The notes under the pieces are model-generated. The model did not search any database. It saw only the letters and a list, made by a program, of their open reading frames with translations, and was not told the DNA's origin. The translations under genes and the position numbers were made by a program. Below, one piece after another: positions 5,423 to 30,389 of a stretch of DNA of 64,000 nt. The stretch is from an uncultured Acidimicrobiaceae bacterium (lineage in GTDB: Bacteria > Actinomycetota > Acidimicrobiia > Acidimicrobiales > RAAP-2): positions 89,681 through 153,680 of the forward strand of contig CAWKII010000001.1 in assembly GCA_963849705.1 (NCBI GenBank), in the 5' to 3' direction. Within the stretch, counting starts at the first letter, position 1, and every line of letters begins with the position of its first letter.

Positions 5423-6337
5423 GTGATAACGGTTCTCAGCGGAGGGGTCGGGGCGGCTCGACTGCTGCACGCACTCAGCGGCGTCCATGATCCTTCGGAC
5501 TTCACCGCCGTCGTCAACGTGGGCGACGACTTGGTTCTCCATGGTCTGACCATCTGTCCCGACTTGGACACCATCACCTACACCCTCGCGGGACTCAACA
5601 ACGAAGAGCTCGGCTGGGGACTAAACGGAGAGACCTGGCGGGTGATGAGCGAACTCGAAGCCCTCGGGGGCGAAGCGTGGTTTCGACTGGGCGACCGCGA
5701 CCTCGCGACGCACCTCTATCGCACGCAGCGTCTACACGACGGCGCCACCAAGACACAGGTCACCGCTGAGTTAGCGAAGCACCACGGCCTTCGGGTGACA
5801 ATCCTGCCCGTGACCGACGACCCACTCTCGACGGAGTTCCTCACCGACGAAGGGAGGCTCTCCTTTCAGGAGTACTTCGTCCACCGCCACCACGACGTCA
5901 CCGTTCAATCGATTACCTTCGTCGGCGCGGAGGACGCCCGGCCGACGGAGGAGGTAACTGAGGCCCTGCGTGACGCCACTCGTCTGGTGATCGCCCCGTC
6001 CAATCCCCTGATCTCCATCGATCCCATCCTCCACGTTCCCGGAGTGCGGGCGGCCCTTCGCTCTCGATCAGACGACGTCGTCGCGATCTCGCCGATCATC
6101 GCGGGTGCGGCCTTGAAGGGTCCGGCCGATCGCCTCTTGCGTGAACTCGGCCACGACAGCAGCGTCCTCGGGGTCGTCGATTTCTACGAGGGACTTGTCG
6201 GCACGTGGATCATTGATGAGGCCGACGCCTCGCTCGCCGGGGACATTCGCGCCCGAGGCCCGCGCGTCGTGGTGACGACCACCGTGATGGCCGAGCCCCA
6301 GAACGCCCTGCGCCTGGCCGCGGCGGTGCTGGCGTGA
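5423..6337 (+). CDS. cofD: 2-phospho-L-lactate/PEP-guanylate transferase (F420 biosynthesis, CofD/FbiA)
   Basis: VLSGGVGAARL, VNVGDD, ICPDLDTITYTLAG, WFRLGDRDLATH, FQEYFV, IAPSNPLISIDPI and ALKGPA. Confidence 0.95.
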   Translation: MITVLSGGVGAARLLHALSGVHDPSDFTAVVNVGDDLVLHGLTICPDLDTITYTLAGLNNEELGWGLNGETWRVMSELEALGGEAWFRLGDRDLATHLYRTQRLHDGATKTQVTAELAKHHGLRVTILPVTDDPLSTEFLTDEGRLSFQEYFVHRHHDVTVQSITFVGAEDARPTEEVTEALRDATRLVIAPSNPLISIDPILHVPGVRAALRSRSDDVVAISPIIAGAALKGPADRLLRELGHDSSVLGVVDFYEGLVGTWIIDEADASLAGDIRARGPRVVVTTTVMAEPQNALRLAAAVLA

Positions 6338-7044
6338 GCGAACTTCGCCTGGTGGCTCTGGCGTCACGGACGACGGTCCAAAAAGGTGACGACCTCGTCG
6401 CGCTATTTCTGACCGCGCTCGAAGAGGCCGGCGAAGAGTTGCGTCACCACGACCTGGTCGTCGTGACGAGCAAAGTGGTCTCGAAATCTGAGGGCCAGGT
6501 CGTTCCCTACGACGGAAGCGACGACGACAAAGTGCGCATCGTAGAAGGTGAGTCGGTGCGCGTCCTTCGTCGTCGCGGCACGCTGCGCATCACCGAAACT
6601 CGCCACGGGTTCATCAACGCCAACGCCGGAGTCGATCTCTCGAACACCGACGACGGCACGGCGGTGCTGCTGCCGAAGGACCCAGATCGATCGGCCCGGC
6701 GCCTGCGAAGCGAAATCGCACGACGAACCGGCCTCGACGTGGCCACGTTGATCACCGACACCTTTGGTCGAGTGTGGCGTCAAGGGGTGACCGACGTCGC
6801 GCTCGGATCGGCGGGCCTTCGGCCCGTGTTGGATCTGCGCGGCACGACGGACGCCAACGGTCGACTGCTCGAGGCCACGGAAGTGGCCATCGCCGACGAG
6901 ATCGCGGGCGCCGCGAACCTCGTCTTGCACAAAGCGGCGGCCACCCCCTTCGCCTTGGTACGAGGGCTCGATGAGTCCTTCTTTGGGCCCGGGTCGGTCA
7001 ACGAAAATATCGTGCGCTCGAAGAACGACGACCTCTTTCGCTGA
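6334..7044 (+). CDS. cofE: Coenzyme F420-0:L-glutamate ligase, single domain
   Basis: VVTSKVVSKSEG, ANAGVDLSN, LLPKDPDRSA, ITDTFGRVWRQG and IADEIAGAA. GTGA overlap with cofD. Confidence 0.93.
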   Translation: MSELRLVALASRTTVQKGDDLVALFLTALEEAGEELRHHDLVVVTSKVVSKSEGQVVPYDGSDDDKVRIVEGESVRVLRRRGTLRITETRHGFINANAGVDLSNTDDGTAVLLPKDPDRSARRLRSEIARRTGLDVATLITDTFGRVWRQGVTDVALGSAGLRPVLDLRGTTDANGRLLEATEVAIADEIAGAANLVLHKAAATPFALVRGLDESFFGPGSVNENIVRSKNDDLFR

Positions 7045-8076
7045 TTAGACCCCGCCGAGTCGCACGTCGCCCGAGAGGCGCGAGTTCGCCGCCACGCGCT
7101 CCTTCGCTCCGACCACGCAGGTAGGACCGAGCACGGAACCCGTACCGATCACTGCCTCGGGCCCGATGATGGACGAGCGAATCTCACATCCGCTCTGGAC
7201 GACGGCACCGGGTAGAAGCACGGAGTCCTCGATCACGACGTTCGCCCCGACGACGCATCCTCGGTCGACGACGGCGTTCTTCAGGGTGGACGTCGAGTCG
7301 ATGGTGGCAGTGCTGTCGCGCCACGAGCCGTTGACGATCCCTTGAAAGCTGTGTTGAGTGTTGTATCCCTTGAGGACGTCCACGTTGGCTTGGAGATAGT
7401 GCTGCGGTGTGCCCGTGTCCAGCCAGTACGACTCGTCACTCATAGCGAAGAGCTCTCTCGCCTCGGCCAGTTGGGGGAAGGTCTCGCGTTCCACGCTGAC
7501 TCGGCCGACGGCCGCGATGCGGTCGAGAGCCCGGGGCTCGAAGACGTAGGTGCCCGCGTTGATCTGATTGGTGGGCGCCTCGCCGGGCGGTGGCTTCTCC
7601 ACGAAAGCCAAGACCCGTCCGTCCAGCGACGTCGGCACCACGCCAAAGTGCGAAGGGTCCTCGACGGGATGCAGCGCAATCGTGGCTTCCCCACCGTGAG
7701 AGCGGTGAAACTCTAGGAGTTTGGTCACGTCGAGACTCGTCACGACATCGCCATTGACGACCAGAAAGGTCTCCTCGACGTGGGCTTCACCGGCGGCAAA
7801 GCGGATGGCTCCGGCCGTGTCGAGAGGCTCGGACTCCACCGCGTACGTCACCCGCACGCCGGAGATCACGTCGGCGGGATAGGCCTCGGTGAATCGATCG
7901 GGCAGATAGCCCAGTGAGAGGACAGCGTCGGTGACACCGTGACGAGCGAGCGCTTCGAGGACGCACTCGATCATGGGCACCCCGACGAGGGGCAACATCT
8001 GCTTAGGGGTCTCGTAGGTCAGAGGTCGCAGGCGCGTTCCCATGCCCCCGACCAGAATGACCGCCTGCAACCTCAA
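7045..8076 (-). CDS. NDP-sugar pyrophosphorylase, probable mannose-1-phosphate guanylyltransferase with C-terminal hexapeptide repeats
   Basis: ILVGGMGTRLRPLT..PKQMLP, EPLDTAGAI, NGDV, FVEKP, INAGTY, WLDTGTP and an LbH tail. Confidence 0.85.
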   Translation of the reverse strand: MRLQAVILVGGMGTRLRPLTYETPKQMLPLVGVPMIECVLEALARHGVTDAVLSLGYLPDRFTEAYPADVISGVRVTYAVESEPLDTAGAIRFAAGEAHVEETFLVVNGDVVTSLDVTKLLEFHRSHGGEATIALHPVEDPSHFGVVPTSLDGRVLAFVEKPPPGEAPTNQINAGTYVFEPRALDRIAAVGRVSVERETFPQLAEARELFAMSDESYWLDTGTPQHYLQANVDVLKGYNTQHSFQGIVNGSWRDSTATIDSTSTLKNAVVDRGCVVGANVVIEDSVLLPGAVVQSGCEIRSSIIGPEAVIGTGSVLGPTCVVGAKERVAANSRLSGDVRLGGV

Positions 8077-10262: not shown

Positions 10263-11195
10263 ATGACTATCGAACTCTCACTCGTTATTCCGGCGTACAA
10301 CGAAGCGGACCGCCTCGCCACGGGCTTCGATCGCCTCCAACCTTTTCTCGACACCGTGGCCCCCGAGACCCTGGAGATCATCGTGATCGACGACGGCTCC
10401 AGCGACGACACCATGCGTCGAGCGCGCGAGGTGTACGCACACGTGGAGAACGCGCGCTTCGTCCAACAGCCCGAGAACCACGGCAAGGGCGCGGCCCTTC
10501 GCCTCGGCATCGGCCTCGCCACGGGAACGAACGTCGTGACCATCGACGCCGACATGGCGATCAACCCACGTCAGCTACCCCTCTTCTTGGCGTCGCTGCG
10601 CGATAGCGCGCTCGTACCGGGTTCTCGGGCCATCAAGGGACGCATCAACTACGACTCGAGGCTCAGAACGCTCTTCGGCGATGGGTTCAACTACTTGGTT
10701 CGCCTCTATACGCGCACGAGTTTGCGCGACACGCAGTGCGGTTGTAAAGGCTTTCAACTGGCCGAGGGGCGGCTCTTGACTCTTCTTTCCTTCATCGACG
10801 GCTTCGCCTTTGACGTGGAGATTCTCTACTTGGCCAACCAGCTCGGACTGAGCGTTCGCCCGCTGCTCGTCACGTGGGACGACGTCGAAGGCTCATCGGT
10901 GCGGCCGGGTCGTGACGCCCTGGCCATGTTCCTCGATATACGGAACATTCGATCACGGCGCTACGAGAACCCGGTCGTCGAGCTGACGACCGGCATCACG
11001 GCCGAGGAGGTCGCGTCCGTGGCGAGAGAGGCGCGGCTCCACGGCCTGGTGCTGGCGCGCGCCGAGGCGAACACACTGGTGGTTCTCGGCCGTAACGACG
11101 CACCCGGCGGACTAGGCCTCGCGGCTCGACTTAAGGGTTCGCTGAGGACCACCACGATCAGTGAACTAAAGGGCCGACGTTTCGAGGCCGTCTAG
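10263..11195 (+). CDS. GT2 polyprenyl-phosphate glycosyltransferase (DPM1/ALG5-like) with C-terminal extension
   Basis: LSLVIPAYNE, IDDGSSD, NHGKGAA, IDAD, DTQCGCKGF and FAFDVEIL. Confidence 0.88.
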   Translation: MTIELSLVIPAYNEADRLATGFDRLQPFLDTVAPETLEIIVIDDGSSDDTMRRAREVYAHVENARFVQQPENHGKGAALRLGIGLATGTNVVTIDADMAINPRQLPLFLASLRDSALVPGSRAIKGRINYDSRLRTLFGDGFNYLVRLYTRTSLRDTQCGCKGFQLAEGRLLTLLSFIDGFAFDVEILYLANQLGLSVRPLLVTWDDVEGSSVRPGRDALAMFLDIRNIRSRRYENPVVELTTGITAEEVASVAREARLHGLVLARAEANTLVVLGRNDAPGGLGLAARLKGSLRTTTISELKGRRFEAV

Positions 11196-11821
11196 TTGTG
11201 TCGCGGAAGTAGCCAGTTCGACACGAGCTCGGGCGCACGGTCGCCCCACTCCTCGGCGGTGATGGCGTAGCGAGCGTGATCTTCCCACGCGCCATCGATC
11301 TCGAGGTAGCGCTCGGAGATCCCTTCAAAACGAATAGCGAGTTTCTCCACGACCCGCCGCGAGGGCGCGTTGCGCGGGATGATGTTGATCTCGACGCGAT
11401 GGAGTCGAAGCGACTCAAAGGCGTACTGCAACATCGTGACGACCGCCTCGGGCATCAGGCCCTGACCAGCCACGGCCTCGTCGATCCAGTAGCCGATGTA
11501 GGCCGACTGGAGGGGACCACGCTGAATGGAGGAGAGGGTTATCTCCCCCACAAAGCGTCCCTCGACGAAGATGCCAAAGCCAAAGCCCGTGCCGATCTGG
11601 CGCTCTCGTTCGCGAATGGCGCAGCGACTGACGAAACTGCGGTGGTCTTCGGCGAGGTGCGAGGCGTGGGCCGAGCGTGGCTCCCACTTCAAGAGCCAGT
11701 CGCGACAACGCGTGCGCACCTCGTACCAGGCCTCGTAGTCGTGCTCGTTCATGGTGCGCAGCACCACGCGGCGCCCGTGCAAGGAGATGGGCGAGTAGAT
11801 CGCGCTGCGCGTCGTCACCAT
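11192..11821 (-). CDS. RimJ/RimL family GNAT N-acetyltransferase
   Basis: SAYIGYWID..AGQGLMPEAV, LRLHRVE, PRNAPSRRVVEKL and GAWEDH. Confidence 0.9.
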   Translation of the reverse strand: MVTTRSAIYSPISLHGRRVVLRTMNEHDYEAWYEVRTRCRDWLLKWEPRSAHASHLAEDHRSFVSRCAIRERERQIGTGFGFGIFVEGRFVGEITLSSIQRGPLQSAYIGYWIDEAVAGQGLMPEAVVTMLQYAFESLRLHRVEINIIPRNAPSRRVVEKLAIRFEGISERYLEIDGAWEDHARYAITAEEWGDRAPELVSNWLLPRHN

Positions 11822-15036: not shown

Positions 15037-16410
15037 CTACGGATGCTCCTCGGCTGTCACGATCTGATCACGAAGCTCGCGAGCACGCTCGCGCAGTGCA
15101 CCTTCGAGATCGACGTCCGCGGCGCTCGCCGCGGCGACGAGAGAACTGAGAGCGTCGCCCCAGGCGCGCTGGGACTCGTCGTACGATCCCGCGCCGTCAA
15201 GTGCGCGCGTCAGCGCAGCGATCGCCTCGAGCGCAGCGGCGAGCGAGGACTCCTCGGACGCGATGGCGAGGTCGGCCAACGCGGCTTTGCGCAGCAACTT
15301 CGTGTACAAGGTCAACGCGGGCATCTGCCAGGCGACGCCGTCTAACACGCTGTCACGGCCTTTTTCTTTTCGCTTCAGCACCTCCCACCGAGCGGCGACC
15401 TCGTCGGCGCTGTTGGCCGCCAGGTCGCCGAAGACGTGAGGGTGGCGATGAATGAGCTTGTCGCGCAACGTATCAACGATCGAGGCAAAGTTGAAGTTCC
15501 CTTCCTCCTCACCCAACTCCGCGTGCAACACCACCTGGACGAGCACGTCGCCGAGCTCTTCTTCGACGTGGGCGATGAGGTCGTCGTCCTGCTCGCCGCG
15601 CTCTTCCATGGCCACGAACACGTCGAGCGCATCGACGGCTTCGTAGGCCTCTTCGAGAAGATGCTTGGTCAAGGAGGCGTGGGTCTGCTCTTGATCCCAG
15701 GGACACTCCGCGCGAAGGCGACTCACCAGGTCCACCAAGTCCGCCGTCGCGACGCCGGCGTCGCGGAACGGCTCCACCCAGAGTGAGGTCAGGTGATCGG
15801 CCTCGCGAAAGGACGCTAGTTCACTCGCCCGAAGAGCAGTCACGACCTGGTCGTCCAGTCCGAGGTGATGAAGCACGTTCACCTGACATTCCGCCGGAAG
15901 TCGGTCCGAGACGCTGGCGAGAATCTCGGGAGAGTACGTCTGGAGGATCAACAAGGGACCGGGGCCGCGAAAGTTGTCGATCGAGTCCAGCGCGTCGACC
16001 ACGCGAAGCCCCGCCGCCATGGGGTCGCGGCCGAGCGCGGCGCAGGCCACGTCAATCACCGACACCGCCGGCTCGAGAATGACCGCCACCTCGGGTCGCT
16101 CCCGCAACAGTTCGACGGTGCGCTCGGCGACCACCGGCGAGCCCGGCACGGCGTAGATGACCTCACGGGGCGCCGCTCGTGTCGCCAGCGACACCAGATC
16201 CTCGACGATGGCTTGATATAGATCGTCAAAGGAGAGCGCACGCTCGTACCACTCGTCATAGGAGGGCACGTCGGCAAAGGCGGCCGCGCTCGGGTGTTCT
16301 CTCGTGCGGAGTCGAGCGACGGACGTCTCACTCAGCAGCGAGAACGTGCGTCGGGTGACGTGATCGAGGGTGCCCGGTCCGAGTCCAACGACCCGTACGA
16401 CGGGCTTCAC
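15037..16410 (-). CDS. mazG: Tetrapyrrole-methylase/MazG fusion (YabN-type nucleoside triphosphate pyrophosphohydrolase)
   Basis: N-terminal VVGLGPG methylase-like domain, then CPWDQEQTH, LLEEAYE, EELGDVL and KLIHRHPHVF. Confidence 0.88.
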   Translation of the reverse strand: MKPVVRVVGLGPGTLDHVTRRTFSLLSETSVARLRTREHPSAAAFADVPSYDEWYERALSFDDLYQAIVEDLVSLATRAAPREVIYAVPGSPVVAERTVELLRERPEVAVILEPAVSVIDVACAALGRDPMAAGLRVVDALDSIDNFRGPGPLLILQTYSPEILASVSDRLPAECQVNVLHHLGLDDQVVTALRASELASFREADHLTSLWVEPFRDAGVATADLVDLVSRLRAECPWDQEQTHASLTKHLLEEAYEAVDALDVFVAMEERGEQDDDLIAHVEEELGDVLVQVVLHAELGEEEGNFNFASIVDTLRDKLIHRHPHVFGDLAANSADEVAARWEVLKRKEKGRDSVLDGVAWQMPALTLYTKLLRKAALADLAIASEESSLAAALEAIAALTRALDGAGSYDESQRAWGDALSSLVAAASAADVDLEGALRERARELRDQIVTAEEHP

Positions 16411-17492
16411 TTATAGGTAGCGGAAGACGACGTCAGTGCCTTGGCGCTGTTGACGTCGCTCTTTGGAGGAGTGGCCGGAGCGAAGACGCCGGGGCCGGCC
16501 GAACTGGCACCCCACACGCCAAAGGCGGGATCCACGTGTACCGCCGCGCGATACAGCAGGTTGTCCTTTAACGCGCTGGCCGACGCGGCGTTGAGACTCT
16601 GCAGATCGGCCAAGACGGCGGGCTCGGCCTTGGCGAACGGGGTCGTCGTGCGACTGGTGACGGCCACGAACAGATCCGCCTCACTGGAGGAGTAGTTGAT
16701 CGTCGACGGCGTGCTGGAGAACGTATTGAGCGCCAGCGACGCCACGTCGGAGCGAACACCGGCGTAGTACTTGCTGCTCGGCGCGTAGCAGCCGTACGCG
16801 CCGCCCTTCGAAGCGGAGGGATCCTCGGAGTACTTCTTCGCCAGAGCCGCCACGCTCAGACCCGAGGCCTGCGCCTGTTCGAAGGCCGTGGCGTTGGCGA
16901 GGGGTACGACGGCCACCGAGACGCACAGGGTGTCGTAGTCCGACGTGTGCGCCGCGTAGTAGCTCTCCATCGACGCCGTCGTTAGTGGGATGGAGTGCTT
17001 GATGCGACCCACCAGGTAGAGCGAGGTCGCCTGCGCCTCGATCTCCGCCGATCGCATCTCCGCGGGCATCTCGGCCAGGGCCGCGGCGGAGGTGCCGGGA
17101 CAGGTCACCGAGCGCGAGGCCGCTTGTTGGGTCATCTCGCTCTCCAAGGAGACCTTGGCCGCCGCGAGTTGGGCCGCGTCGGGGTGGTACTTCAGATTCG
17201 AGGTGACGTACTGATTGATCGCGAAGCCTTCCACGCGGAGATTGGCCCAGGTGGCGGCGCCCGTCGCCTTCATCGAGTCGCCACCGGCGCCCTTCTCGTA
17301 GCCGGTCGAAGGGTCCAGGACGTAGACATAACACAGCAGGGTCTCGTGGTGTTCGATCGCGTTGAGCTCGCTCAGAAAGTCATGCGAGGAGAGCGAGGTG
17401 TGGTTCACCGTGAGCCCCGACGATTGGCCGCTCAACCCATAGATAGTGGCCCCAACCAGAGCGAGGACGAACAGGGCAACGAGGCGACGCAC
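16407..17492 (-). CDS. Exported PrsA/SurA-like protein with degenerate parvulin (rotamase) domain
   Basis: Signal or anchor helix and ALAKKYSEDPSASKGGAYG motif. Lies between mfd and mazG. Confidence 0.65.
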   Translation of the reverse strand: MRRLVALFVLALVGATIYGLSGQSSGLTVNHTSLSSHDFLSELNAIEHHETLLCYVYVLDPSTGYEKGAGGDSMKATGAATWANLRVEGFAINQYVTSNLKYHPDAAQLAAAKVSLESEMTQQAASRSVTCPGTSAAALAEMPAEMRSAEIEAQATSLYLVGRIKHSIPLTTASMESYYAAHTSDYDTLCVSVAVVPLANATAFEQAQASGLSVAALAKKYSEDPSASKGGAYGCYAPSSKYYAGVRSDVASLALNTFSSTPSTINYSSSEADLFVAVTSRTTTPFAKAEPAVLADLQSLNAASASALKDNLLYRAAVHVDPAFGVWGASSAGPGVFAPATPPKSDVNSAKALTSSSATYK

Positions 17493-17515: not shown

Positions 17516-20500
17516 TTAGGCGACGGCCGGCGCGGCGTGAAGCTCTTCTATCAATAGCGTGATCGCGCGGGGCGTCGTCTGACTGGCCGCGAGCTCCACG
17601 CGAAACTCCTTGGTCGACTCGTTGTAGGCGCTGGAGCCGTACGTGCGTCGCAGGCGGAGTTGCTGGCTCAGGGTCAAGGTGAGCGGCCCCATCTTGAGGA
17701 CCGGCTTGGAACGCACCCCCATGCGAGCCGGGAGCACGGCCACGGACGTAACGGCGTAGGCGAGACAGGTGAGACGAAGTTGGGCGAGGTCGAGCAGGCC
17801 CTTGGTCGGCTCGGGCAGCGCGCCGTAGCGGTCGACCCACTCGAGAGCCAGGTCGTCGAGTTCCGCCTGGCCGCTCACACCGGCCAGGCGGCGATAGGCC
17901 TCGAGTCGCGCGTCGTCGGCCTCGACGTACTCCTTGGGCAGATGCGCCTCGCCCGGCACGTCGAGGTTGACCGGTACCACGTCGGGCACGCGAAAGCCCT
18001 TGGCGTCGGCGACCGCTTCGGCCACCAATTGGACGTACAGGTCGTAGCCGACTGCGGCGACGGGACCCGACTGGTCGTGGCCGAGGAGGTTCCCGGCCCC
18101 TCGAATCTCGAGATCGCGCATGGCGATCTTGAAACCGCTGCCCAAGGCGGTGTTGTCACCGATGGTTCGCAGCCGCTCGTAGGCCGTCTCCGAGAGCACC
18201 TGCTCGGCCGGGTGGAAAAGATACGCGTAAGCCCGCTGGCCGCTTCGACCGACCCGGCCACGGAGTTGGTGCAGTTGGCCGAGCCCGAGACGCTCCGCGC
18301 GATCGACGATCAACGTGTTAACCGAGGGCAGGTCGATGCCGGACTCCACGATGGTCGTACAGACTAAGACGTCGTAGCGACGCTCCCAGAAGTCGATCAT
18401 GACCCGCTCTAGCGTGCCTTCATCCATCTGACCGTGCGCCACGGCGATGCGGGCGTCGGGGACGAGCTGGCCCAGGCGCTGGGCCACGTGGTCAATATCC
18501 GACACGCGATTGTGCACGAAGAAGACCTGACCTTCACGAAGCAGTTCACGTCGAATCGCTTCCACGACAGCCGGTTCGTTGTACTCCCCCACGTGGGTGA
18601 GAATCGGTCGGCGGTCGGCCGGTGGGGTGGTGATCATCGAGAGATCGCGGATACCGGTAAAGGCCATCTCCAGCGTGCGCGGAATAGGGCTGGCGCTCAG
18701 GGTCAGCACATCGACCCCGACGGCGCGCGCCTTGATCGCCTCTTTGTGTTGCACGCCGAAGCGCTGCTCTTCGTCCACCACGAGGAGTCCGAGCTTCTTA
18801 AAGGAGACCGTGTCGCTGAGCAAACGGTGGGTACCGATGACGACGTCGATCGTCCCCTCGCGCAGTCCCGCCAATGTGGTCCGGGTCTCGGCTTCGTCGA
18901 CGAAACGACTGAGGAGCGCAACCTTGAGGGGAAAGCCCGCGAACCTCTCGGAGAACGTCGCAAAGTGTTGACTGGCGAGCAACGTGGTCGGCACCAGGAT
19001 CGCTGCTTGTGTGTTGTCCTGCACGGCCTTGAACACGGCCCGCAGCGCCACTTCGGTCTTGCCGAAGCCCACGTCGGCACAGATCAGTCGATCCATGGGG
19101 CGCGGCGATTCCATGTCCTTCTTCACGTCCTGAATCGCTTGAGCCTGGTCGGCGGTGAGCGTGAAGGGGAAGAGCTCTTCCATCTCGCGCTGCCACGCGG
19201 TGTCTGGACTGAAGGGGTGGCCTTCGGCGACGGTACGCAGCCGATAGAGGTCGACCAGCTCCTGGGCCACTAAGAACGCGGCGGCGCGGGCCTTAGCCCT
19301 CGTCTTTTGCCACTCCGCGCCACCCAGGCGTGAGAGCGCCGGGCCCTCGCCCCCGCTGTAGGGAGTGAGCGCGTCGATCTGTTCGGTAGGCCAGTAGCTC
19401 TTGCCGTCCTTGAACTGCAAGATGAGATAGTCACGCGTCACGCCGTTGATGGCGCGCGTCGTCGTACCTGAGAATCTCGCGACCCCGTGCTGTCGGTGGA
19501 CGACGTAGCTCCCGACGGCCAGGTCGTCAAAGAACCCGTCGACGTTGCGCGATCGCGTTCGAGGGATACGACGTTGACTACGCCGACCGGTGAGATCGCT
19601 CTCGCTCCACACGACGATGGGCGGTGACTCCAGGAAGAACCCCGCCGGCAAGGTGCTCTCGAGGACGCTCAGTCGAGCCTCGAGCACGTGCGTAGGGTCG
19701 GTCGTGACCTCCACCCCTTCGCCACGCAGTTGCTCGGCCATGCGATCAATGGCCCCCGGCGTGGAGGTCAACACCACCCCGCGGCGATCTTGGCTCCAGT
19801 TGCGTACGTGGGCCGCGATCCGGGCCGCGTCGCCCTGGACGACCGGCGGCGAGGAGAGGGATCCCGCGTCGGCGAGCAAGGACGCACTCGACTCCAGGGC
19901 GAGACTCACTCGTCCCTCGATGGACAGGTCGTAGCCGAGGTGCAACAGAGGCACCGGCTCGCTCGCGCGCCACGTCGCCGCGACGACGTCGGTGAGCTCA
20001 CGCTCCTCGTCAAGTAGTTCAGACAGCCTCGCGCGCACCCGCGCCGGCTCCACGACCACGACCCGGGCGTCCGTCGTCTCGTCGAGCAACGTGTGGGCGC
20101 TCTCGACGAAGAGACCCATCCAGCCTTCCATGCCGTCGAAGAGTTGGCCCGTCGAGAGTCGATCGAACGTCGACGACGCCCACGGCGCACTCCGTGAGAG
20201 CAGCTCGGCCTTAGCGCGCGTCGCGGCACCCGGGAGCCACTCACGCGCCGGCGCGACAGTGGCCTCGTCGAGGTCGTGCGTTGAGCGCTGGGTGGCGATG
20301 TCGATGGCCGTCAGTCGCTCGACCTCGTCGCCGAAGAAGTCCAGACGAATCGGTTCGTCGTTTTGGGCCGGCCACACGTCGACGATGCCCCCGCGCACCG
20401 CGAACTCCGCGCGATGCTCCACTAAGTGCTCGCGCCGATATCCGAAGTCCGCGAGACCTTGGATGAACTCGTCGCGAACGATCTCGCTTCCTCGGGCCAG

Positions 20501-20905
20501 CACGAAGGGGGCGACCAGACCCTCGGGAGAGAGCACCTGGGCGACGGAGCGGGCGGAGGCGACGATGACTCGAGGAGCGTTGCCCACATGAATACGCCAG
20601 CGCAAGAGCGCGCGCATGGCCATCACCTGGCTGTCCGGGCTGACTCGTTCGAGAGGGTGCGTGTCCCATCCGGGCCAGAGCGCCACGGCGCCCACTCCGA
20701 GCCAGGCTTCGAGAGCGTCCACGACGTGTTCGGCCTCGCTCGACGTGGGCGTCACCGCCACGGTGAAAGGAACTTCGAGTGAGAGCGCCGCGAGGGCCAG
20801 GGGCGTGGCGTACGAGGACGGTGCAAACGAGCCCGAGGCTAGGGACGCGCGTACGGCGGGGGCGACGACGTCGAGGACTCGTGCTAGTCCGCGGGGTTCA
20901 CTCAC
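17516..20905 (-). CDS. mfd: Transcription-repair coupling factor
   Basis: FAVRGGIVD, VVHRQHGVA (RID), MDRLICADVGFGKTEVA, VVDEEQRFG, LSASPIPRTL and QLHQLRGRVGRS. Confidence 0.99.
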   Translation of the reverse strand: MSEPRGLARVLDVVAPAVRASLASGSFAPSSYATPLALAALSLEVPFTVAVTPTSSEAEHVVDALEAWLGVGAVALWPGWDTHPLERVSPDSQVMAMRALLRWRIHVGNAPRVIVASARSVAQVLSPEGLVAPFVLARGSEIVRDEFIQGLADFGYRREHLVEHRAEFAVRGGIVDVWPAQNDEPIRLDFFGDEVERLTAIDIATQRSTHDLDEATVAPAREWLPGAATRAKAELLSRSAPWASSTFDRLSTGQLFDGMEGWMGLFVESAHTLLDETTDARVVVVEPARVRARLSELLDEERELTDVVAATWRASEPVPLLHLGYDLSIEGRVSLALESSASLLADAGSLSSPPVVQGDAARIAAHVRNWSQDRRGVVLTSTPGAIDRMAEQLRGEGVEVTTDPTHVLEARLSVLESTLPAGFFLESPPIVVWSESDLTGRRSQRRIPRTRSRNVDGFFDDLAVGSYVVHRQHGVARFSGTTTRAINGVTRDYLILQFKDGKSYWPTEQIDALTPYSGGEGPALSRLGGAEWQKTRAKARAAAFLVAQELVDLYRLRTVAEGHPFSPDTAWQREMEELFPFTLTADQAQAIQDVKKDMESPRPMDRLICADVGFGKTEVALRAVFKAVQDNTQAAILVPTTLLASQHFATFSERFAGFPLKVALLSRFVDEAETRTTLAGLREGTIDVVIGTHRLLSDTVSFKKLGLLVVDEEQRFGVQHKEAIKARAVGVDVLTLSASPIPRTLEMAFTGIRDLSMITTPPADRRPILTHVGEYNEPAVVEAIRRELLREGQVFFVHNRVSDIDHVAQRLGQLVPDARIAVAHGQMDEGTLERVMIDFWERRYDVLVCTTIVESGIDLPSVNTLIVDRAERLGLGQLHQLRGRVGRSGQRAYAYLFHPAEQVLSETAYERLRTIGDNTALGSGFKIAMRDLEIRGAGNLLGHDQSGPVAAVGYDLYVQLVAEAVADAKGFRVPDVVPVNLDVPGEAHLPKEYVEADDARLEAYRRLAGVSGQAELDDLALEWVDRYGALPEPTKGLLDLAQLRLTCLAYAVTSVAVLPARMGVRSKPVLKMGPLTLTLSQQLRLRRTYGSSAYNESTKEFRVELAASQTTPRAITLLIEELHAAPAVA

Positions 20906-21519
20906 GATCCGTTGATGCGTTGCTGAGCGTCGGCGAAGTCGTACTCCAACAGTGTCTCGAGGGCGTCCGCGGCGCGAGCCACCTCGGCCTCTCTCGCCTC
21001 GCGTTGCGCGCCGGTGGGGCGACGAAGGACGTAGTTGGCTCCTTGTTCTTTGGACGGTGGCTTGCCGATGCCGATGCGCAGTCGAGCGAACTCTTGGGTG
21101 CCGAGCGTCGAGGCGATCGAACGCAACCCGTTATGTCCGGCGAGCCCTCCCCCGAGACGAAGTTGCAGCCGCCCCGGTTCAAGGTCGAGTTCGTCGTGCA
21201 CGACGACCAACTCCGAGACGTCATCGAGGGAGGTGCGTCGCAAGAGTGGCGCGATCGCGGCACCCGACTCGTTCATGTACGTGGTGGGTATCGCCAAGGT
21301 CACGGGGCCCCGGGGCGTCGCCAGTGTCACGCTCTCCGCACGTTGGCGCCGCTCGCGACTGAACTGACCACCGCGACGCGCCACCACCAGGCGAACGGCG
21401 TCGCCACCCACGTTGTGACGCGACCCTTCATACTCGGAGCCGGGGTTAGCGAGGCCGACCACGAGCAGAGCGCTCTTTTGGCCTCGTCGATCGTTCTCGC
21501 GAGCGCGCCGAAGCGCCAC
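20902..21519 (-). CDS. pth: Peptidyl-tRNA hydrolase
   Basis: VGLANPG..Y..SRHNVG, TYMNESG, VVHDELD, GGLAGHNGLRS and RLRIGIG. Confidence 0.97.
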   Translation of the reverse strand: MALRRARENDRRGQKSALLVVGLANPGSEYEGSRHNVGGDAVRLVVARRGGQFSRERRQRAESVTLATPRGPVTLAIPTTYMNESGAAIAPLLRRTSLDDVSELVVVHDELDLEPGRLQLRLGGGLAGHNGLRSIASTLGTQEFARLRIGIGKPPSKEQGANYVLRRPTGAQREAREAEVARAADALETLLEYDFADAQQRINGS

Positions 21520-21525
21520 GACGAA

Positions 21526-22128
21526 CTACTCCGTGGGAGCGTCGCCGCCGGCCGCCGCGACAGGCTTGGCCGCACGTCCGGCGTGGGTGGCGACGACCGC
21601 CACCGTCGGATCGGCGACCGCCTCGACGCCCTTGGGCAACACGAGGTCGCCGACGCGAATTGAGGCACCCACACTGAGGCTCGAGATGTCGACTTCGACG
21701 AAGTTGGGGATGTCATCAGGACGGGCCAACACTTCGATGTTGAACATCTGCTGGTCGACTTCCCAGTCCGCGTGACGAACTTCCACGGCGTCGCCGATGA
21801 TGTGCAGCGGCACTTCGGCGACGACGGGCCTGTTGCGGTCGACCACTTGAAAGTCAATGTGCGAGACGGTTCCGCGCACGGGGTGGCGTTGGATCTCGCG
21901 AGCCAGAACGGTGAAGGTCTTTCCGTCGGCGTCGAGGGTGATCAAGGAGTTGAGCCCCTGCTCACCCGAGACGGCACTGCGAAAGTCTTTGGCGTTCACG
22001 GACACGGGGAGGGGTGCTACGCCCTCGCCGTAGATGACGGCGGGAATAGCGCCCGTGTGGCGCAGGCGGCGAGCGTTCGACGAACCCTGGGCGCGACTGG
22101 TCGACGCGTGCAGCGTGATCTGTGACAT
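21526..22128 (-). CDS. rplY: 50S ribosomal protein L25/Ctc
   Basis: RRLRHTGAIPAVIYG and EIQRHPV..SHIDF, plus the C-terminal Ctc domain. Lies between prs and pth. Confidence 0.95.
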   Translation of the reverse strand: MSQITLHASTSRAQGSSNARRLRHTGAIPAVIYGEGVAPLPVSVNAKDFRSAVSGEQGLNSLITLDADGKTFTVLAREIQRHPVRGTVSHIDFQVVDRNRPVVAEVPLHIIGDAVEVRHADWEVDQQMFNIEVLARPDDIPNFVEVDISSLSVGASIRVGDLVLPKGVEAVADPTVAVVATHAGRAAKPVAAAGGDAPTE

Positions 22129-22229: not shown

Positions 22230-23204
22230 CTAGAGGAGGTTCTCGCCTCCGAAGATGTCCGACACCGACGTGTCGTCGAAGATCGCCGAAATGGCGTTGG
22301 CCAAGATCGGAGCGATCGAGAGGACCTCGAGCTTCTCAAAGCGTTTCTCGGGGCCGAGCGGCAAGGTGTCGGTCACGATGACCCGGCTGATGGGGGCGTT
22401 AAAGAGTCGGTCGACCGCCGGCGGTGAGAAGACGGCGTGCGTGGCCATCACCCAGATCTCGGCCGCACCGTGCGCTTTTAAGAGGTCACAGGCCGCGACG
22501 ATGGTGCCCGCGGTGTCGATCATGTCGTCGATCAAGACACAGTGACGTCCCTCCACCTCACCCACGATGTGGCGGGCCTCGGCCACGTTGACGCGATCAC
22601 GCGGACGGGTCTTGTGCACGAGGGCGAGCTCACAGCCCAAATGCTGCGCGTAGCGTTCGGCCACTTTGACCCGACCCGCGTCCGGGGCCACCACCACCAG
22701 GTCCCGGGGATCGGCGTTCGACTTGAGGTACGCCTCGAGCACGGGAGCCGCGACCAGGTGATCCACCGGAACGTCAAAGAACCCCTGGATCTGGCCCGAG
22801 TGAAAGTCCACCGAGAGAACTCGCGTGGCACCCGCCGTTTGCAGCATGTCGGCCACCAGTTTCGCGGTGATCGGTTCGCGGCCCGCGGTCTTTCGATCCT
22901 GACGGGCGTACCCGTAGTTGGGGATGACCGCGGTGATGCTTTTCGCCGAGGCCCGCTTCGCGGCGTCGATCATGATGAGCTGTTCCATCACCGAGTCGTT
23001 CACCGGCGAGGCGTGCGTCTGCATAATGAAAACGTGCGCGCCGCGAATCGACTCGTCGATGCGACAGTGGATCTCCCCGTCGGCGAACTCGCGAAGATTG
23101 GCTTCGGTCAACTCCACGCCCAGCAACGCGGCCACCGAGGCGGCGAGCACGGGGTGGCATCGGCCCGTGACGATGACGAGGCGACGTTTCGCGAGGGACT
23201 CCAC
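22230..23204 (-). CDS. prs: Ribose-phosphate pyrophosphokinase
   Basis: FADGEI, PNYGYARQDRK, VDFHSGQIQGFFD, APDAG and DDMIDTAGT. Confidence 0.98.
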   Translation of the reverse strand: MESLAKRRLVIVTGRCHPVLAASVAALLGVELTEANLREFADGEIHCRIDESIRGAHVFIMQTHASPVNDSVMEQLIMIDAAKRASAKSITAVIPNYGYARQDRKTAGREPITAKLVADMLQTAGATRVLSVDFHSGQIQGFFDVPVDHLVAAPVLEAYLKSNADPRDLVVVAPDAGRVKVAERYAQHLGCELALVHKTRPRDRVNVAEARHIVGEVEGRHCVLIDDMIDTAGTIVAACDLLKAHGAAEIWVMATHAVFSPPAVDRLFNAPISRVIVTDTLPLGPEKRFEKLEVLSIAPILANAISAIFDDTSVSDIFGGENLL

Positions 23205-23232
23205 GGCGCCAGCGTACAGGTGAACGAGCGGC

Positions 23233-24330
23233 CTAGTGAGAACGTTGTGACAGGGGCGTGACGATTTCGCCCGTCGCGACGTCCGCTCCCGGACTCAACA
23301 CCACGAAGGACGAGACGCGCGCGTCGGCACCGATTCGTGCGCGCGTCGCTTCGACACTTCCGACGTACGCGTTCTCTCCGACCTCGACGTCGCGCAACGT
23401 GGCGTTCGGCCCGATCTGCGCGCCCCGGGCGATGCGACAGTGTCCGCGCAGGATCGTGCCCGGCAGCAGTGACACGTCGGAGGCGAGTTCCACGTCGGCG
23501 TCGACGTAGGTGTCGGCAGGATTCCACATGGTGACACCCCGCGACAGCCACTGCTCGTTGATGCGGGTGCGCAGTACGCGCTCGACGCGCGCGAGTTGGA
23601 GCCGGTCATTCACGCCCGCCGCTTCGCTGGCGTCGTCCAGCATGAGCGATCCCGTCACGTGGCCCATATCGTGAAGCACTCCTACTAAGTCGGTCAGGTA
23701 GTACTCGTGTTGAGCGTTTTGGCGATCCACCCGGCGTAGCGCGGGGCCGAGCAGGCTCTGGCGCACCACCATGATCGACGTATTGATCTCGTTGATCGCT
23801 CGTTCGGCCACGCTGGCGTCACCTTCTTCCACGATGCGCTCGAGTGTGCCGTCCTTCGCGTGGATCAAGCGGCCGTAGCCCGTCGGCTCCTCCACGCGCG
23901 CCCCGAGCACGGTCAGAGCGGCGTTCGTCTCGCGGTGCACCGCCAAGAGTCGCGCCACGCTAGCTCGGCGAAGCAGGGGCGTATCGCCGGGAAGAATGAC
24001 GACATCGCCGTCCGTCTCGCCAATGGCTTCGTCCAGAGCCGGCAGGGCGACCGCGACGGCGTGACCGGTGCCGAGTTGCTCGTCCTGCTCGACGAAGGTG
24101 AGACGACGCGCGACGTGAAAGCTTTCGCCTATCTCCTTCTCCACCCACAGGGCGTCGTGTCCCACCACCACGACGGTGGCCCGGACATTGTCTTGGGCCG
24201 CCGCGTCGAGCACGTAGAGAACCATGGCCCGACCGCACAGCTGGTGCAGCGGCTTGGGTCGAGACGAGCGCATCCGCGTTCCCTCGCCCGCGGCGAGGAC
24301 GACGACACAGGTGGGGCGACTCACCCCCAC
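23233..24330 (-). CDS. glmU: GlmU, uridyltransferase domain plus truncated left-handed beta-helix (365 aa)
   Basis: VLAAGEGTRMRS..PKPLH, EQLGTGHA, GDTPL, PTGYGR, EINT, EYYLTD and GVNDR. Ends after a few hexapeptide repeats, before the usual NFVE/HLxY/NYDG segment. Confidence 0.9.
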   Translation of the reverse strand: MGVSRPTCVVVLAAGEGTRMRSSRPKPLHQLCGRAMVLYVLDAAAQDNVRATVVVVGHDALWVEKEIGESFHVARRLTFVEQDEQLGTGHAVAVALPALDEAIGETDGDVVILPGDTPLLRRASVARLLAVHRETNAALTVLGARVEEPTGYGRLIHAKDGTLERIVEEGDASVAERAINEINTSIMVVRQSLLGPALRRVDRQNAQHEYYLTDLVGVLHDMGHVTGSLMLDDASEAAGVNDRLQLARVERVLRTRINEQWLSRGVTMWNPADTYVDADVELASDVSLLPGTILRGHCRIARGAQIGPNATLRDVEVGENAYVGSVEATRARIGADARVSSFVVLSPGADVATGEIVTPLSQRSH

Positions 24331-24365
24331 ATCTCTAGCAGGAGGAGTGCTCTACGATGCGGGAC

Positions 24366-25253
24366 GTGAGTCACAATTCTTATGACGAGTTTTCCCTCTT
24401 CCACGAAAACCTAGAGGAGTGGGGTCTGAACGTCCCCGTTCCCCCGGTTCAGCGCTTCTACGTCGCGGTCGACGGGCTGCGTCAAGTGAGTGGCCTGCGT
24501 TGGGGTGAAGGTGAACCCGAGCTCGTTCTCGTGCACGGGGGCGCCCAGAACGCCCACACCTTCGACACCGTCGCCCTCGCCCTCCAGCGGCCCCTGGTGG
24601 CCCTCGATTTACCGGGTCACGGCCACTCCGATCCCTCTCCCTTCGGCCACTCGGCCTACGACCATCACGCCCGCGACCTCGAAGTGGCGATCTCCGAGGT
24701 GACGACTCGCGCGTTGCCCCTCGTGGGCATGTCGCTCGGGGGAATGTGCTCCATCGTCGTGGCGGCCGAACGACCCGATCTGGTCTCCTCGCTGGTCCTG
24801 ATCGACATCACCCCGGGCGTCAACTCCGAGAAGTCTCGCCACATCACCGACTTCGTCAACGGGCCGAAGACCTTTGACAACTTCGACGCGCTCCTCGCGC
24901 GCACCGTCGAGCACAACCCCACGCGATCGGTCTCCTCACTTCGTCGCGGCATCTTGCATAACGCCGTCCAGCTGCCTGATGGTAGTTGGGTGTGGCGTCA
25001 TCAACAGCACGCGACCTCGCCCCTCGCGGCACCGACGCCCGGGAACCTGTGGGAGCAACTCGGCTCACTCGCCATGCCGGTCACCTTGATCCGCGGCATG
25101 GCGGGCGGATCGGTGGTTGATGACGAGGACGAGGACGAGCTGCTGCGCCGACTCCCCCAGGCCACGGTCATTCACGTGGAGGACGCCGGACACTCGATCC
25201 AAGGCGACCAGCCGGTCGAACTCGCCCGGCTGTTGCAAGAGGTGTGCGTGTAG
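24366..25253 (+). CDS. Alpha/beta hydrolase
   Basis: LVHGGAQN, DLPGHG, GMSLGG nucleophile elbow and AGHSIQ. GTG start lies 7 nt after a TACGAT -10. Confidence 0.9.
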   Translation: MSHNSYDEFSLFHENLEEWGLNVPVPPVQRFYVAVDGLRQVSGLRWGEGEPELVLVHGGAQNAHTFDTVALALQRPLVALDLPGHGHSDPSPFGHSAYDHHARDLEVAISEVTTRALPLVGMSLGGMCSIVVAAERPDLVSSLVLIDITPGVNSEKSRHITDFVNGPKTFDNFDALLARTVEHNPTRSVSSLRRGILHNAVQLPDGSWVWRHQQHATSPLAAPTPGNLWEQLGSLAMPVTLIRGMAGGSVVDDEDEDELLRRLPQATVIHVEDAGHSIQGDQPVELARLLQEVCV

Positions 25254-28798: not shown

Positions 28799-29613
28799 CG
28801 AGCCGCCGCGAGAGCCGCGAACTCTTCGATAGTCAGTTCTTCTGGCCGGCGAGTCTCCGCCACGCCGGAGCGTTCGAAGACGCCGTCGGTGATCCACGGC
28901 GCCAGCGAACGGCGGAGCATCTTTCGACGTTGGCCAAAAGCCATGCGAATCATGGCGAACAGCTCCTCTTCGCTCACGACCTGTGGATCAACACGCACCC
29001 GCTCGCGACGCACCAGCGACACCAGCACCGAGTCCACCTTGGGTTTGGGCAGGAAGACCGACGGCGGAACCTTGCCCACGATCTTGGCGTCGGCGAAGTA
29101 CTGCACACGCAACGAGACCGCCCCGTAGGCCTCATCACCGGCGTGGGCGGCCAGCCGCTCCCCCGCCTCTTTTTGGACCATGACCAGCATGCGCGTAATC
29201 AGCGGCTCGCTTTCTAACAGGTGCAACACGACGGGCGTGGCCACGTTGTAGGGCAGGTTCGCCACCACCACGGTGTTTCGCCCGCCGAGGATCGACGCGT
29301 AGTCGGCGTCGAGGGCGTTGGCGTGATGGACGTCGATTCCCGTGCCCTCGACGGCGTGGCTCAAGGGCTCGATCAAGTAGCGATCGAGTTCGAGAGCGAG
29401 CACGTGGGCTCCCGTTTCGGCCAGCGCCAGGCTCAGTGAGCCGAGTCCTGCGCCAATCTCTAAGACTTGGTCGCCCGCCCCGACGTCGGCCAGCCGGGCG
29501 ATTCGTCGCACCGTGTTGGGGTCGACCACGAAGTTCTGTCCCAGGGCCCGCGAGGGAGTAAGCCCGTGATCCTTCAACAGAGCAATCACGTCGCTACGAG
29601 TGTGGGTCACCAC
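28795..29613 (-). CDS. rsmA: 16S rRNA m6,2A dimethyltransferase
   Basis: LGQNFVVD, VLEIGAGLGSL, VANLPYNVAT, MVQKE and FGQRRKMLR. Confidence 0.97.
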   Translation of the reverse strand: MVTHTRSDVIALLKDHGLTPSRALGQNFVVDPNTVRRIARLADVGAGDQVLEIGAGLGSLSLALAETGAHVLALELDRYLIEPLSHAVEGTGIDVHHANALDADYASILGGRNTVVVANLPYNVATPVVLHLLESEPLITRMLVMVQKEAGERLAAHAGDEAYGAVSLRVQYFADAKIVGKVPPSVFLPKPKVDSVLVSLVRRERVRVDPQVVSEEELFAMIRMAFGQRRKMLRRSLAPWITDGVFERSGVAETRRPEELTIEEFAALAAAR

Positions 29614-30389
29614 GTAACTTTGACACTAATCACGCCCTTCCAGAGCGGGGCTAATTGGGCGAACTGGGTCTCTGAGAGATCGACCACGTGATTGCCGCTA
29701 CGCCACTCGCGATCCGAGATGATGCAGGTGATCGCCTTTCCGGTCGACAGGTCGCGAATGGTGATCCTCGTGCCCTTAGGCAGATACCACGTGGCGCAGC
29801 GTCCGGGGATGTAGTTGTACCACGTGGCGACGCCGATCTTGTAGCCCGCGCCGTTGATGACCGAGCCCGCCGCAACCGCAGGCGGGGTCGCCACCGGCGC
29901 CACCGCCTTGACGGGGGCGGGCTTGCGCATAGCTACCCTCACGGTGATCTCGGCGTGCCACGCAACCTTCGTGCCCGGGGCCACCGACTGGGAGAGAACG
30001 ACCTTCCAGGTTCCGTTGGAACTTCCTGGTCCGGTCGGTAAAAAGTACAGTTGCGCCTGGCGCATGGCGAGAAGAGCTTCGGCGTGGGTGAGGTCGATGA
30101 GGCGGGGCACGGCCCGGGGGCCTCGGGGATTCACGTTAGTGACGGTAAGAGTCGCCTCACCGTGCCACTTGATCTCGACGCCGGGACGAGGAGACTGCGC
30201 GGTGACCTCGAACCATCGATCGACGTTGCTCCCCGGTCCTTCCGTCTCGAAGTAGAGGCCGTTGTTTCGCATGATGCGATAGACGTCAACGCGGCTGCGC
30301 CCGATGAGATCGGGCATGCGAACGGGCGCGTGCCTCCCCCCGGCGCCAGCCGTGTTGGGCGTCAGCAGCACCACCGTGGTGGCCAACAC
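29607..30389 (-). CDS. Exported protein with two PASTA-like repeats and a C-terminal RlpA-like double-psi beta-barrel (start may lie slightly upstream)
   Basis: VRMPDLIG...AQSPRPG and AVPRLID...SQSVAPGTKV repeats, an Ala/Pro linker, then ATWY..LPKGT.I.I..C.ISDR..VVDLS..F..L..GVI.V. Confidence 0.75.
   Translation of the reverse strand: MLATTVVLLTPNTAGAGGRHAPVRMPDLIGRSRVDVYRIMRNNGLYFETEGPGSNVDRWFEVTAQSPRPGVEIKWHGEATLTVTNVNPRGPRAVPRLIDLTHAEALLAMRQAQLYFLPTGPGSSNGTWKVVLSQSVAPGTKVAWHAEITVRVAMRKPAPVKAVAPVATPPAVAAGSVINGAGYKIGVATWYNYIPGRCATWYLPKGTRITIRDLSTGKAITCIISDREWRSGNHVVDLSETQFAQLAPLWKGVISVKVTW

Follow-up and report, generated by a model that had tools for sequence, protein, structure and literature searches.

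We analysed a 64,000-nucleotide (nt) stretch of contig CAWKII010000001.1 from an uncultured Acidimicrobiaceae bacterium (hereafter the window) and found that its glmU gene encodes a protein of only 365 amino acids (aa), in which the uridylyltransferase site is intact and the acetyltransferase site is absent. The truncation, its conservation among relatives, purifying selection on the gene and an orthologous gene order were all directly observed. The explanation we consider probable is that in an ancestor of the class Acidimicrobiia an actinobacterial glmU was shortened by the distal half of the left-handed beta-helix (LbH) and by the C-terminal arm, that the product is monofunctional and that acetylation is carried out by a separately encoded enzyme. 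The short protein would then be a natural enzyme converting N-acetylglucosamine 1-phosphate (GlcNAc-1-P) and uridine triphosphate into uridine diphosphate N-acetylglucosamine (UDP-GlcNAc) and pyrophosphate. Its helical arm and the five to six remaining LbH coils would most likely serve only as a stalk for trimerisation and stability, as in the engineered Escherichia coli construct GlmU-Tr331, and we regard the protein as probably trimeric. Acetylation of glucosamine 1-phosphate (GlcN-1-P) would lie beyond the short GlmU, and N-acetylation in the de novo synthesis of UDP-GlcNAc would fall to an enzyme encoded outside the window.

Domain layout of the short GlmU

A preliminary description of this DNA had reported a 365-aa open reading frame (ORF) with a complete uridylyltransferase domain and a stop codon inside the beta-helix. 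The ORF itself, Pfam, NCBIfam and the alignment to GlmU of Mycobacterium tuberculosis (Mtb) agree on this layout, and the C-terminus reads ...GEIVTPLSQRSH followed by the stop. Pfam assigned NTP_transferase to residues 10-234 and detected only two Hexapep stretches besides. Eleven NCBIfam GlmU equivalog models matched strongly, but they covered only positions ∼3-347 of 430-488 and all remained below their curated cutoffs, the best being NF010932 with 363.1 bits against a cutoff of 611; for TIGR01173 we obtained 320.9 bits against 366.85. The alignment to Mtb GlmU spans residues 6-349 of 495 (∼39% identity, E 1.7e-68). The beta-helix is therefore cut off early, as had been described. The statement that the protein stops a few hexapeptide repeats into it has to be corrected, because ∼100 LbH residues (265-365) are kept, corresponding to five to six coils or about half of the beta-helix, while ∼130 residues are missing.

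The AlphaFold2 model of the short protein has a high predicted confidence (pLDDT 91.3, pTM 0.87); its Rossmann-like domain is followed by a long helix (residues 243-263) and then by short beta-strands up to the C-terminus. The counterpart of the helical arm in E. coli GlmU is Leu230-Ala250 (PMC10087520). The best Foldseek matches were Mtb GlmU structures with TMq values of 0.88-0.92, spanning only the first ∼360 columns, and both Foldseek and the sequence search also matched the E. coli Tr331 fragment (1FWY/1FXJ). Other nucleotidyltransferase families fit far less well. The model for the archaeal ST0452 type (TIGR03992), a bifunctional sugar-1-phosphate nucleotidylyltransferase/acetyltransferase, gave 110.3 bits against a cutoff of 292.1 over model positions 3-296 of 393, and the Foldseek TM score to ST0452 was ∼0.5. 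For NagU/UAP1, the eukaryote-like UDP-GlcNAc pyrophosphorylase, we found no UDPGP-family match of the short GlmU in Pfam or the PDB, and the top hits were all GlmU. Finally, the protein scored 363 bits on the GlmU model compared to 76 bits on the Rv3264c-type model.

Uridylyltransferase and acetyltransferase sites

We compared the catalytic residues of the two activities with those of Mtb GlmU. The equivalents of R19, K26, Q83, G88, T89, D114, G151, E166, N181 and N239 are all identical in the short GlmU, and the substitution K26A is known to kill the uridylyltransferase activity of the Mtb enzyme (PMC4619583). At the other end, the protein terminates near Mtb residue 363, at a G-x-F-V-E-x-K position ∼11 residues before the catalytic His (H374 in Mtb, H363 in E. 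coli). Our alignment of GlmU forms (alignment A1) places the catalytic His, the NYDG region and the C-terminal arm beyond the stop. The earlier claim that the acetyltransferase active site is missing is borne out by the ends of the hidden Markov model matches, by the Mtb alignment and by alignment A1.

The consequences of such a loss are well documented. Mtb GlmU with the substitution H374A or without its C-domain no longer transfers acetyl groups but still transfers uridyl groups, and each of the two activities is independently essential in Mtb (PMC4619583). E. coli GlmU-Tr331 has uridylyltransferase activity only (PMC4358021). The acetyl-transfer site is formed between the LbH domains of the trimer, while uridyl transfer is possible without trimerisation (PMC10087520).

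The retained stub carries further traces of this loss. The Arg of the (L/I)RPG motif (Mtb R344) was replaced in 11 out of 12 short forms and was present in all six full-length forms. We take this residue to be a ligand of the GlcN-1-P phosphate in the acetyltransferase substrate site, and its replacement is what would be expected if the constraints of acetyl transfer had been lifted long ago. The near-invariant residues of the stub are Gly, Pro and hydrophobic positions, and we detected no new catalytic signature among them. Of the features of a bifunctional GlmU we thus found the N-domain signature and residues as well as the orthologous position, but neither a complete LbH nor a score above the NCBIfam cutoff. 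For a monofunctional GlcNAc-1-P uridylyltransferase, we found the features that sequence can show: the site for uridyl transfer is intact, the one for acetyl transfer is absent, the form is fixed in the lineage and the gene is no pseudogene. From these residues we infer a monofunctional uridylyltransferase role.

The truncation is real

The preliminary description had given 28 nt between the glmU stop and the prs start and had seen no frameshifted remnant. Both observations hold: the spacer is exactly 28 nt long (Table 1), searches with GlmU C-domains were negative, and a remnant of the missing 130 codons is impossible at this locus because the spacer is so short. Logan contigs from four soil-metagenome runs (two studies) were aligned to positions 22900-24700 and showed 0 substitutions or indels across the stop/prs junction. 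In 27 sequences, the window and 26 related loci, the stop occupies the same alignment column, although the codon itself is TAG, TGA or TAA. For 15 close members we computed pairwise ratios of nonsynonymous to synonymous substitution rates (dN/dS), which came to 0.13 (N-domain), 0.09 (arm), 0.10 (LbH stub) and 0.14 (last 25 codons). The short gene is under purifying selection along its whole length, stub included.

An assembly error would have undone the whole case, as the preliminary description itself had pointed out. The metagenome contigs and the common stop column of the relatives rule this out. A false stop introduced by assembly or sequencing, or a recent pseudogene, has next to no probability: the same sequence was recovered in four runs from two studies, the shared column is reached with varying stop codons, prs begins 28 nt further on and dN/dS is ∼0.1. 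The short glmU is neither an artefact nor a pseudogene.

The spacer also contains a conserved element. TGTACGCT is located at 23211-23218 (-), 6 nt upstream of the prs GTG, and is kept in 26 of the 27 sequences despite variation in the glmU stop codon and the bases before it. It resembles an extended -10 element positioned for a leaderless prs transcript. A sigma-70 and terminator scan of 23100-24500 returned nothing, and its two-hexamer sigma-70 search did not flag TGTACGCT.

Distribution of the short form

The best 120 homologue clusters (66-94% identity) have lengths of 330-371 aa, except for two N-terminal overcalls of 413 and 463 aa, and the homologues that we inspected among them end in ...PF(S/T)HRSH. 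We also scanned GTDB contigs, one genome per species, with query-specific peptide patterns. This yielded 27 loci from metagenome-assembled genomes (MAGs) of Acidimicrobiales or Acidimicrobiaceae, among them the closed chromosomes OY969907.1 and OY970152.1. All loci that could be read through the stop encode 360-365 aa and end at the same alignment column. The next-best matches (≤46% identity; mostly Propionibacteriales, Kribbella and other Actinomycetota) are nearly all 446-504 aa long.

An exhaustive search of 50%-identity representatives revealed many more proteins of 343-384 aa at 38-57% identity, with Acidimicrobiales, Actinomycetota and Tara Oceans plankton given as sources. The deeper short forms included in alignment A1 all end at the G-x-F-V-E-x-K position of the full-length enzymes, and most of them retain the terminal Pro-Phe. 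Two cultured species belong to this group. Ferrimicrobium acidiphilum DSM 19497 has a short GlmU of 365 aa, and the best 120 relatives of that protein are all ≤441 aa, most of them 349-404 aa. In Acidimicrobium ferrooxidans DSM 10331 the complete chromosome of 2,158,157 bp encodes a 364-aa 'Nucleotidyl transferase'. The survey of GlmU lengths that the preliminary description had proposed thus found the short form in all Acidimicrobiia relatives examined, including A. ferrooxidans and F. acidiphilum. Judged by these lengths and end points, the truncation appears to be an old trait that spans the class.

We then considered whether the short protein could itself provide the acetyl transfer, either through a site re-invented in the stub or tail or by making UDP-glucosamine that another enzyme N-acetylates. 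The low dN/dS of the stub and C-terminal tail (0.10-0.14) and the wide conservation of Pro-Phe near the C-terminus are in favour of such unusual chemistry, as is the fact that a trimer is not required for uridyl transfer alone. However, the near-invariant stub residues are of the structural type found in beta-helices, the deeper lineages do not share the His residues found at the C-terminus in the close clade, and the residues of the sugar and nucleotide sites are all identical to those of the GlcNAc-1-P-specific GlmU. Furthermore, truncation before the catalytic His ends acetyl transfer in E. coli and Mtb (PMC4358021, PMC4619583). We consider this alternative very improbable.

Several longer homologues (P0018, P0081, P0121, P0122, P0144 and P0196) were examined as possible full-length forms and turned out to be N-terminal overcalls, frameshifts or chimeras. 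Two further sequences deviate in other ways. P0183, a 781-aa protein from a JGI metagenome of unidentified lineage, is GlmU-like with an LbH that likewise ends near G-x-F, and a long low-complexity linker fuses this part to a Sua5/YrdC (TsaC-like) domain. P0159, a short-GlmU representative of 362 aa from an Actinomycetota MAG, shows degraded uridylyltransferase motifs: where LAAGxGTRM and GYGR would be expected, it has LAGGDDGAMRG and GRGTRR, respectively. It may be an inactive copy.

Gene order and orthology

The order glmU-prs-ctc-pth-mfd was encountered in all short-glmU loci examined, including that of A. ferrooxidans, and the deeper contigs display (ksgA-ispE-)glmU-prs-ctc-pth-mfd. By gene order, the short gene is the positional orthologue of the full-length actinobacterial glmU and not an additional paralogue, because the ancestral glmU slot beside prs-ctc-pth is occupied by it in every lineage.

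Upstream, glmU is divergent from an alpha/beta-hydrolase gene, with 26 nt between the two start codons, a spacing which suggests leaderless transcripts on both sides. This gene adjoins the short glmU in all 28 close Acidimicrobiaceae loci. It lies near no full-length glmU and is missing from the neighbourhood of the deeper short-glmU lineages. Table 1 lists the features of the locus.

Table 1. Features of the short glmU locus, with positions counted from the first nucleotide of the window
Feature	Position	Strand	Basis
Short glmU coding sequence	23233..24330	-	GTG start, 365 aa and TAG stop at 23235..23233; GlmU homology
Uridylyltransferase domain (sugar-1-phosphate nucleotidyltransferase), residues ∼1-230	23641..24330	-	LAAGxGTRM motif; Pfam PF00483 and PF12804
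Long alpha-helical arm joining both domains, residues ∼243-263	23542..23604	-	DSSP on AlphaFold2 model: helix H243-263
LbH stub, residues ∼265-365, ∼5-6 coils	23236..23538	-	Alignment, ends of HMM and PDB matches, AlphaFold2 strands
glmU-prs intergenic spacer, 28 nt	23205..23232	-	Between TAG stop and prs GTG at 23204
prs, ribose-phosphate pyrophosphokinase, 324 aa	22230..23204	-	ORF; Pribosyltran_N and Pribosyl_synth in syntenic gene
ctc/rplY	21526-22128	-	Co-directional cluster (17516..22128)
pth	20902-21519	-	Co-directional cluster
mfd	17516-20905	-	Co-directional cluster
Alpha/beta-hydrolase, Rv0045c-like esterase, 298 aa	24357..25253	+	Pfam Abhydrolase_1; PDB 3P2M/6WYM, E 6e-60

Source of the acetyl group

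In order to find a partner enzyme we annotated ∼55 ORFs of the window by Pfam or NCBIfam and ran tblastn with six C-terminal domains of GlmU against the window and 34 short-glmU loci (584 kb in total, only a small part of any one genome). As a positive control, the same six queries matched full-length glmU loci at E values of 1e-37 to 1e-59. Clustering of the ORFs across 29 loci gave no conserved acetyltransferase. In total we encountered no acetylation candidate in the window or in the 584 kb around short glmU genes, where the LbH protein at 7045-8076 was not checked for acetyltransferase residues.

Several of these results weigh against a separately encoded enzyme as we propose it. The tblastn search returned nothing below E 0.08. 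Two candidates in the window were rejected. The alpha/beta-hydrolase, considered as the missing acyltransferase, is no strong candidate: it is an Rv0045c-type esterase that is absent near glmU in the deeper lineages, and M. tuberculosis has an esterase of this type in addition to a full-length GlmU. The second candidate, a GNAT encoded at 11192-11821 (-), is of the RimJ-like kind, and its best structural matches are mycobacterial GNATs. It is 56% identical to the GNAT of locus L083 (18679-19317), whereas the GlmUs of the two lineages are only 40% identical, and in both lineages the RimJ-like gene is located 9-11 kb from glmU beside a GT2 glycosyltransferase. Selection on the stub is a further difficulty: it is not accounted for by catalysis alone, because uridyl transfer needs no trimer (PMC10087520). 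Lastly, the sequence that was read comprises ∼±10 kb around each short glmU.

This last point also speaks for a second, full-length bifunctional glmU elsewhere in the genome, which would make UDP-GlcNAc and leave the short gene as a redundant or specialised paralogue. The query-specific peptide patterns of the genome scan would miss a paralogue at ∼40% identity, and full-length and truncated copies are known to coexist in some bacteria (Fong et al. preprint, bioRxiv 10.64898/2026.06.23.733835). Against a second copy we can set the ancestral position of the short gene by prs-ctc-pth in every lineage, the strong purifying selection on it together with its intact uridylyltransferase site, the lack of any full-length form in the two sets of 120 closest relatives, one for each query, and the decay of the acetyltransferase-site Arg in the retained stub. 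On balance such a second gene is improbable.

The organism might also dispense with de novo acetylation altogether. It would then be auxotrophic for GlcNAc and would process salvaged GlcNAc or peptidoglycan fragments by a kinase, a mutase and the short GlmU. F. acidiphilum, one of the short-form members, is a heterotroph that is usually grown with yeast extract, and this lineage inhabits soil and peat, which are rich in chitin and murein debris. There is a precedent in the Bacteroidetes, where salvage was proposed for Capnocytophaga canimorsus (PMC4358021). However, A. ferrooxidans ICP, a Gram-positive bacterium whose murein contains meso-diaminopimelic acid, grows as an autotroph on CO2 and ferrous iron (PMC3035218). 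Since this species has the same 364-aa form and builds its murein on CO2, salvage is unlikely to suffice, which implies a separate acetyltransferase. In addition, the trait covers the whole free-living class including marine plankton lineages, and obligate GlcNAc dependence is implausible across so wide a free-living range. We therefore judge salvage as the sole source to be quite improbable.

The preliminary description had concluded that another acetylation route is needed. The autotrophic A. ferrooxidans strengthens this conclusion, which is well founded and falls short of proof. Under the explanation by a separately encoded enzyme, two kinds of protein come into question. A stand-alone LbH acetyltransferase that is related to the GlmU C-domain and acts on GlcN-1-P seems to us somewhat doubtful. 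An unrelated acetyltransferase, for example of the GNAT type, which would act on glucosamine 6-phosphate (GlcN-6-P) before a mutase, is put forward tentatively. For the class as a whole it is likewise conceivable, and not yet the expected outcome, that Acidimicrobiia make UDP-GlcNAc de novo with an N-acetyltransferase for amino sugars that has no relation to the C-domain of GlmU; for example, a GNAT would then acetylate GlcN-6-P and GlmM or another mutase would give GlcNAc-1-P.

Comparison with known systems

Truncation of GlmU has been encountered before. It was described for C. canimorsus and 30 of 45 Bacteroidetes genera, where it was read as GlcNAc auxotrophy (PMC4358021), and for Chlorobaculum limnaeum (PMC7725333). 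N-terminal-only GlmUs were also found in some bacteria that contain NagU, such as Polystyrenella longa, a finding that led the authors to postulate 'an unidentified acetyltransferase' (bioRxiv 10.64898/2026.06.23.733835). The claim of an undescribed variation in the preliminary description was therefore overstated. The kind of truncation was already known, and what is new is the lineage, the Acidimicrobiia, and the class-wide depth. Full-text searches pairing GlmU or UDP-GlcNAc with the names Acidimicrobiia or Acidimicrobium found nothing relevant.

The closest engineered counterpart is E. coli GlmU-Tr331 (PDB 1FWY/1FXJ), which likewise consists of a nucleotidyltransferase domain, a helical arm and the initial coils of the beta-helix. 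Tr331 is a laboratory construct, whereas the short GlmU is natural, ∼20 residues (one coil) longer, equipped with a conserved tail and long under selection. Full-length Mtb GlmU (Rv1018c) is the positional orthologue (glmU-prs...) with identical uridylyltransferase residues, but it has residues ∼364-495 including H374, whose equivalent is missing here. The GlmU of C. canimorsus and many Bacteroidetes (Renzi et al. 2015, PMC4358021) is also a natural uridylyltransferase without acetyltransferase, a likeness in function. In that other phylum the trait is tied to the loss of GlmM and to the foraging of host GlcNAc, whereas the Acidimicrobiia are free-living and include an autotroph. P. longa and C. 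limnaeum show a similar truncation and were found among genomes with the eukaryote-like uridylyltransferase NagU; the case of the Acidimicrobiia differs in being class-wide and set inside a conserved actinobacterial operon. The Rv3264c/GMPPB-type GDP-mannose pyrophosphorylases have an analogous architecture, in which a short LbH comes after the nucleotidyltransferase domain; this LbH is not known to have acetyltransferase activity. They belong to a different subfamily and use a different substrate.

The GlmU acetyltransferase is regarded as a universal, essential function of bacteria and is a drug target in M. tuberculosis, and here a whole class of the same phylum is without the site. The case stands out because this is the phylum in which that activity is validated as an essential function, and because a cultured autotroph with a small complete genome is included. 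A missing glucosamine-phosphate N-acetyltransferase is implied for Bacteroidota, Chlorobi and Planctomycetes too, and the 2.16-Mb genome of A. ferrooxidans makes the orphan step tractable. If an unrelated acetyltransferase is indeed responsible, it would constitute an uncharacterised bacterial route for an essential step and might also account for the truncated GlmUs of these three groups. There is a practical side as well. In JGI, UniProt and part of NCBI, these short proteins of 360-370 aa are labelled 'bifunctional GlmU'. This label is an over-annotation, and metabolic reconstructions of Acidimicrobiia MAGs that rely on it would wrongly show a complete UDP-GlcNAc pathway.

Other genes of the window

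The genes cofD (5423-6337) and cofE (6334-7044) adjoin the gene of an Rv3264c-type mannose-1-phosphate guanylyltransferase with a short LbH (7045-8076, -). We had considered this ManC-like protein with its nucleotidyltransferase and LbH domains as a candidate acetyltransferase and set it aside as an Rv3264c-type orthologue beside cofD and cofE. The cluster mirrors the fbiA-fbiB-Rv3264c arrangement of M. tuberculosis.

Between mfd and mazG we found a 361-aa ORF (16407-17492, -) that has a hydrophobic signal or anchor at its N-terminus and gave no match in Pfam or NCBIfam. It was likewise rejected as an acetyltransferase on account of this signal or anchor and of the rotamase gene that is located at its position elsewhere. 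Since that gene is of the PpiC type in other Acidimicrobiia, the ORF is possibly a divergent PrsA-like foldase. The adjacent 457-aa ORF (15037-16410, -) combines a MazG nucleotide pyrophosphohydrolase domain with an N-terminal TP_methylase-like fusion, which is also annotated in the marine Acidimicrobiia locus L084. Between ksgA and tatD, a 260-aa ORF (29607-30389, -) encodes PASTA domains and a DPBB (lytic transglycosylase-like) domain, and in the marine locus L085 a gene with a Transglycosylas domain adjoins ksgA.

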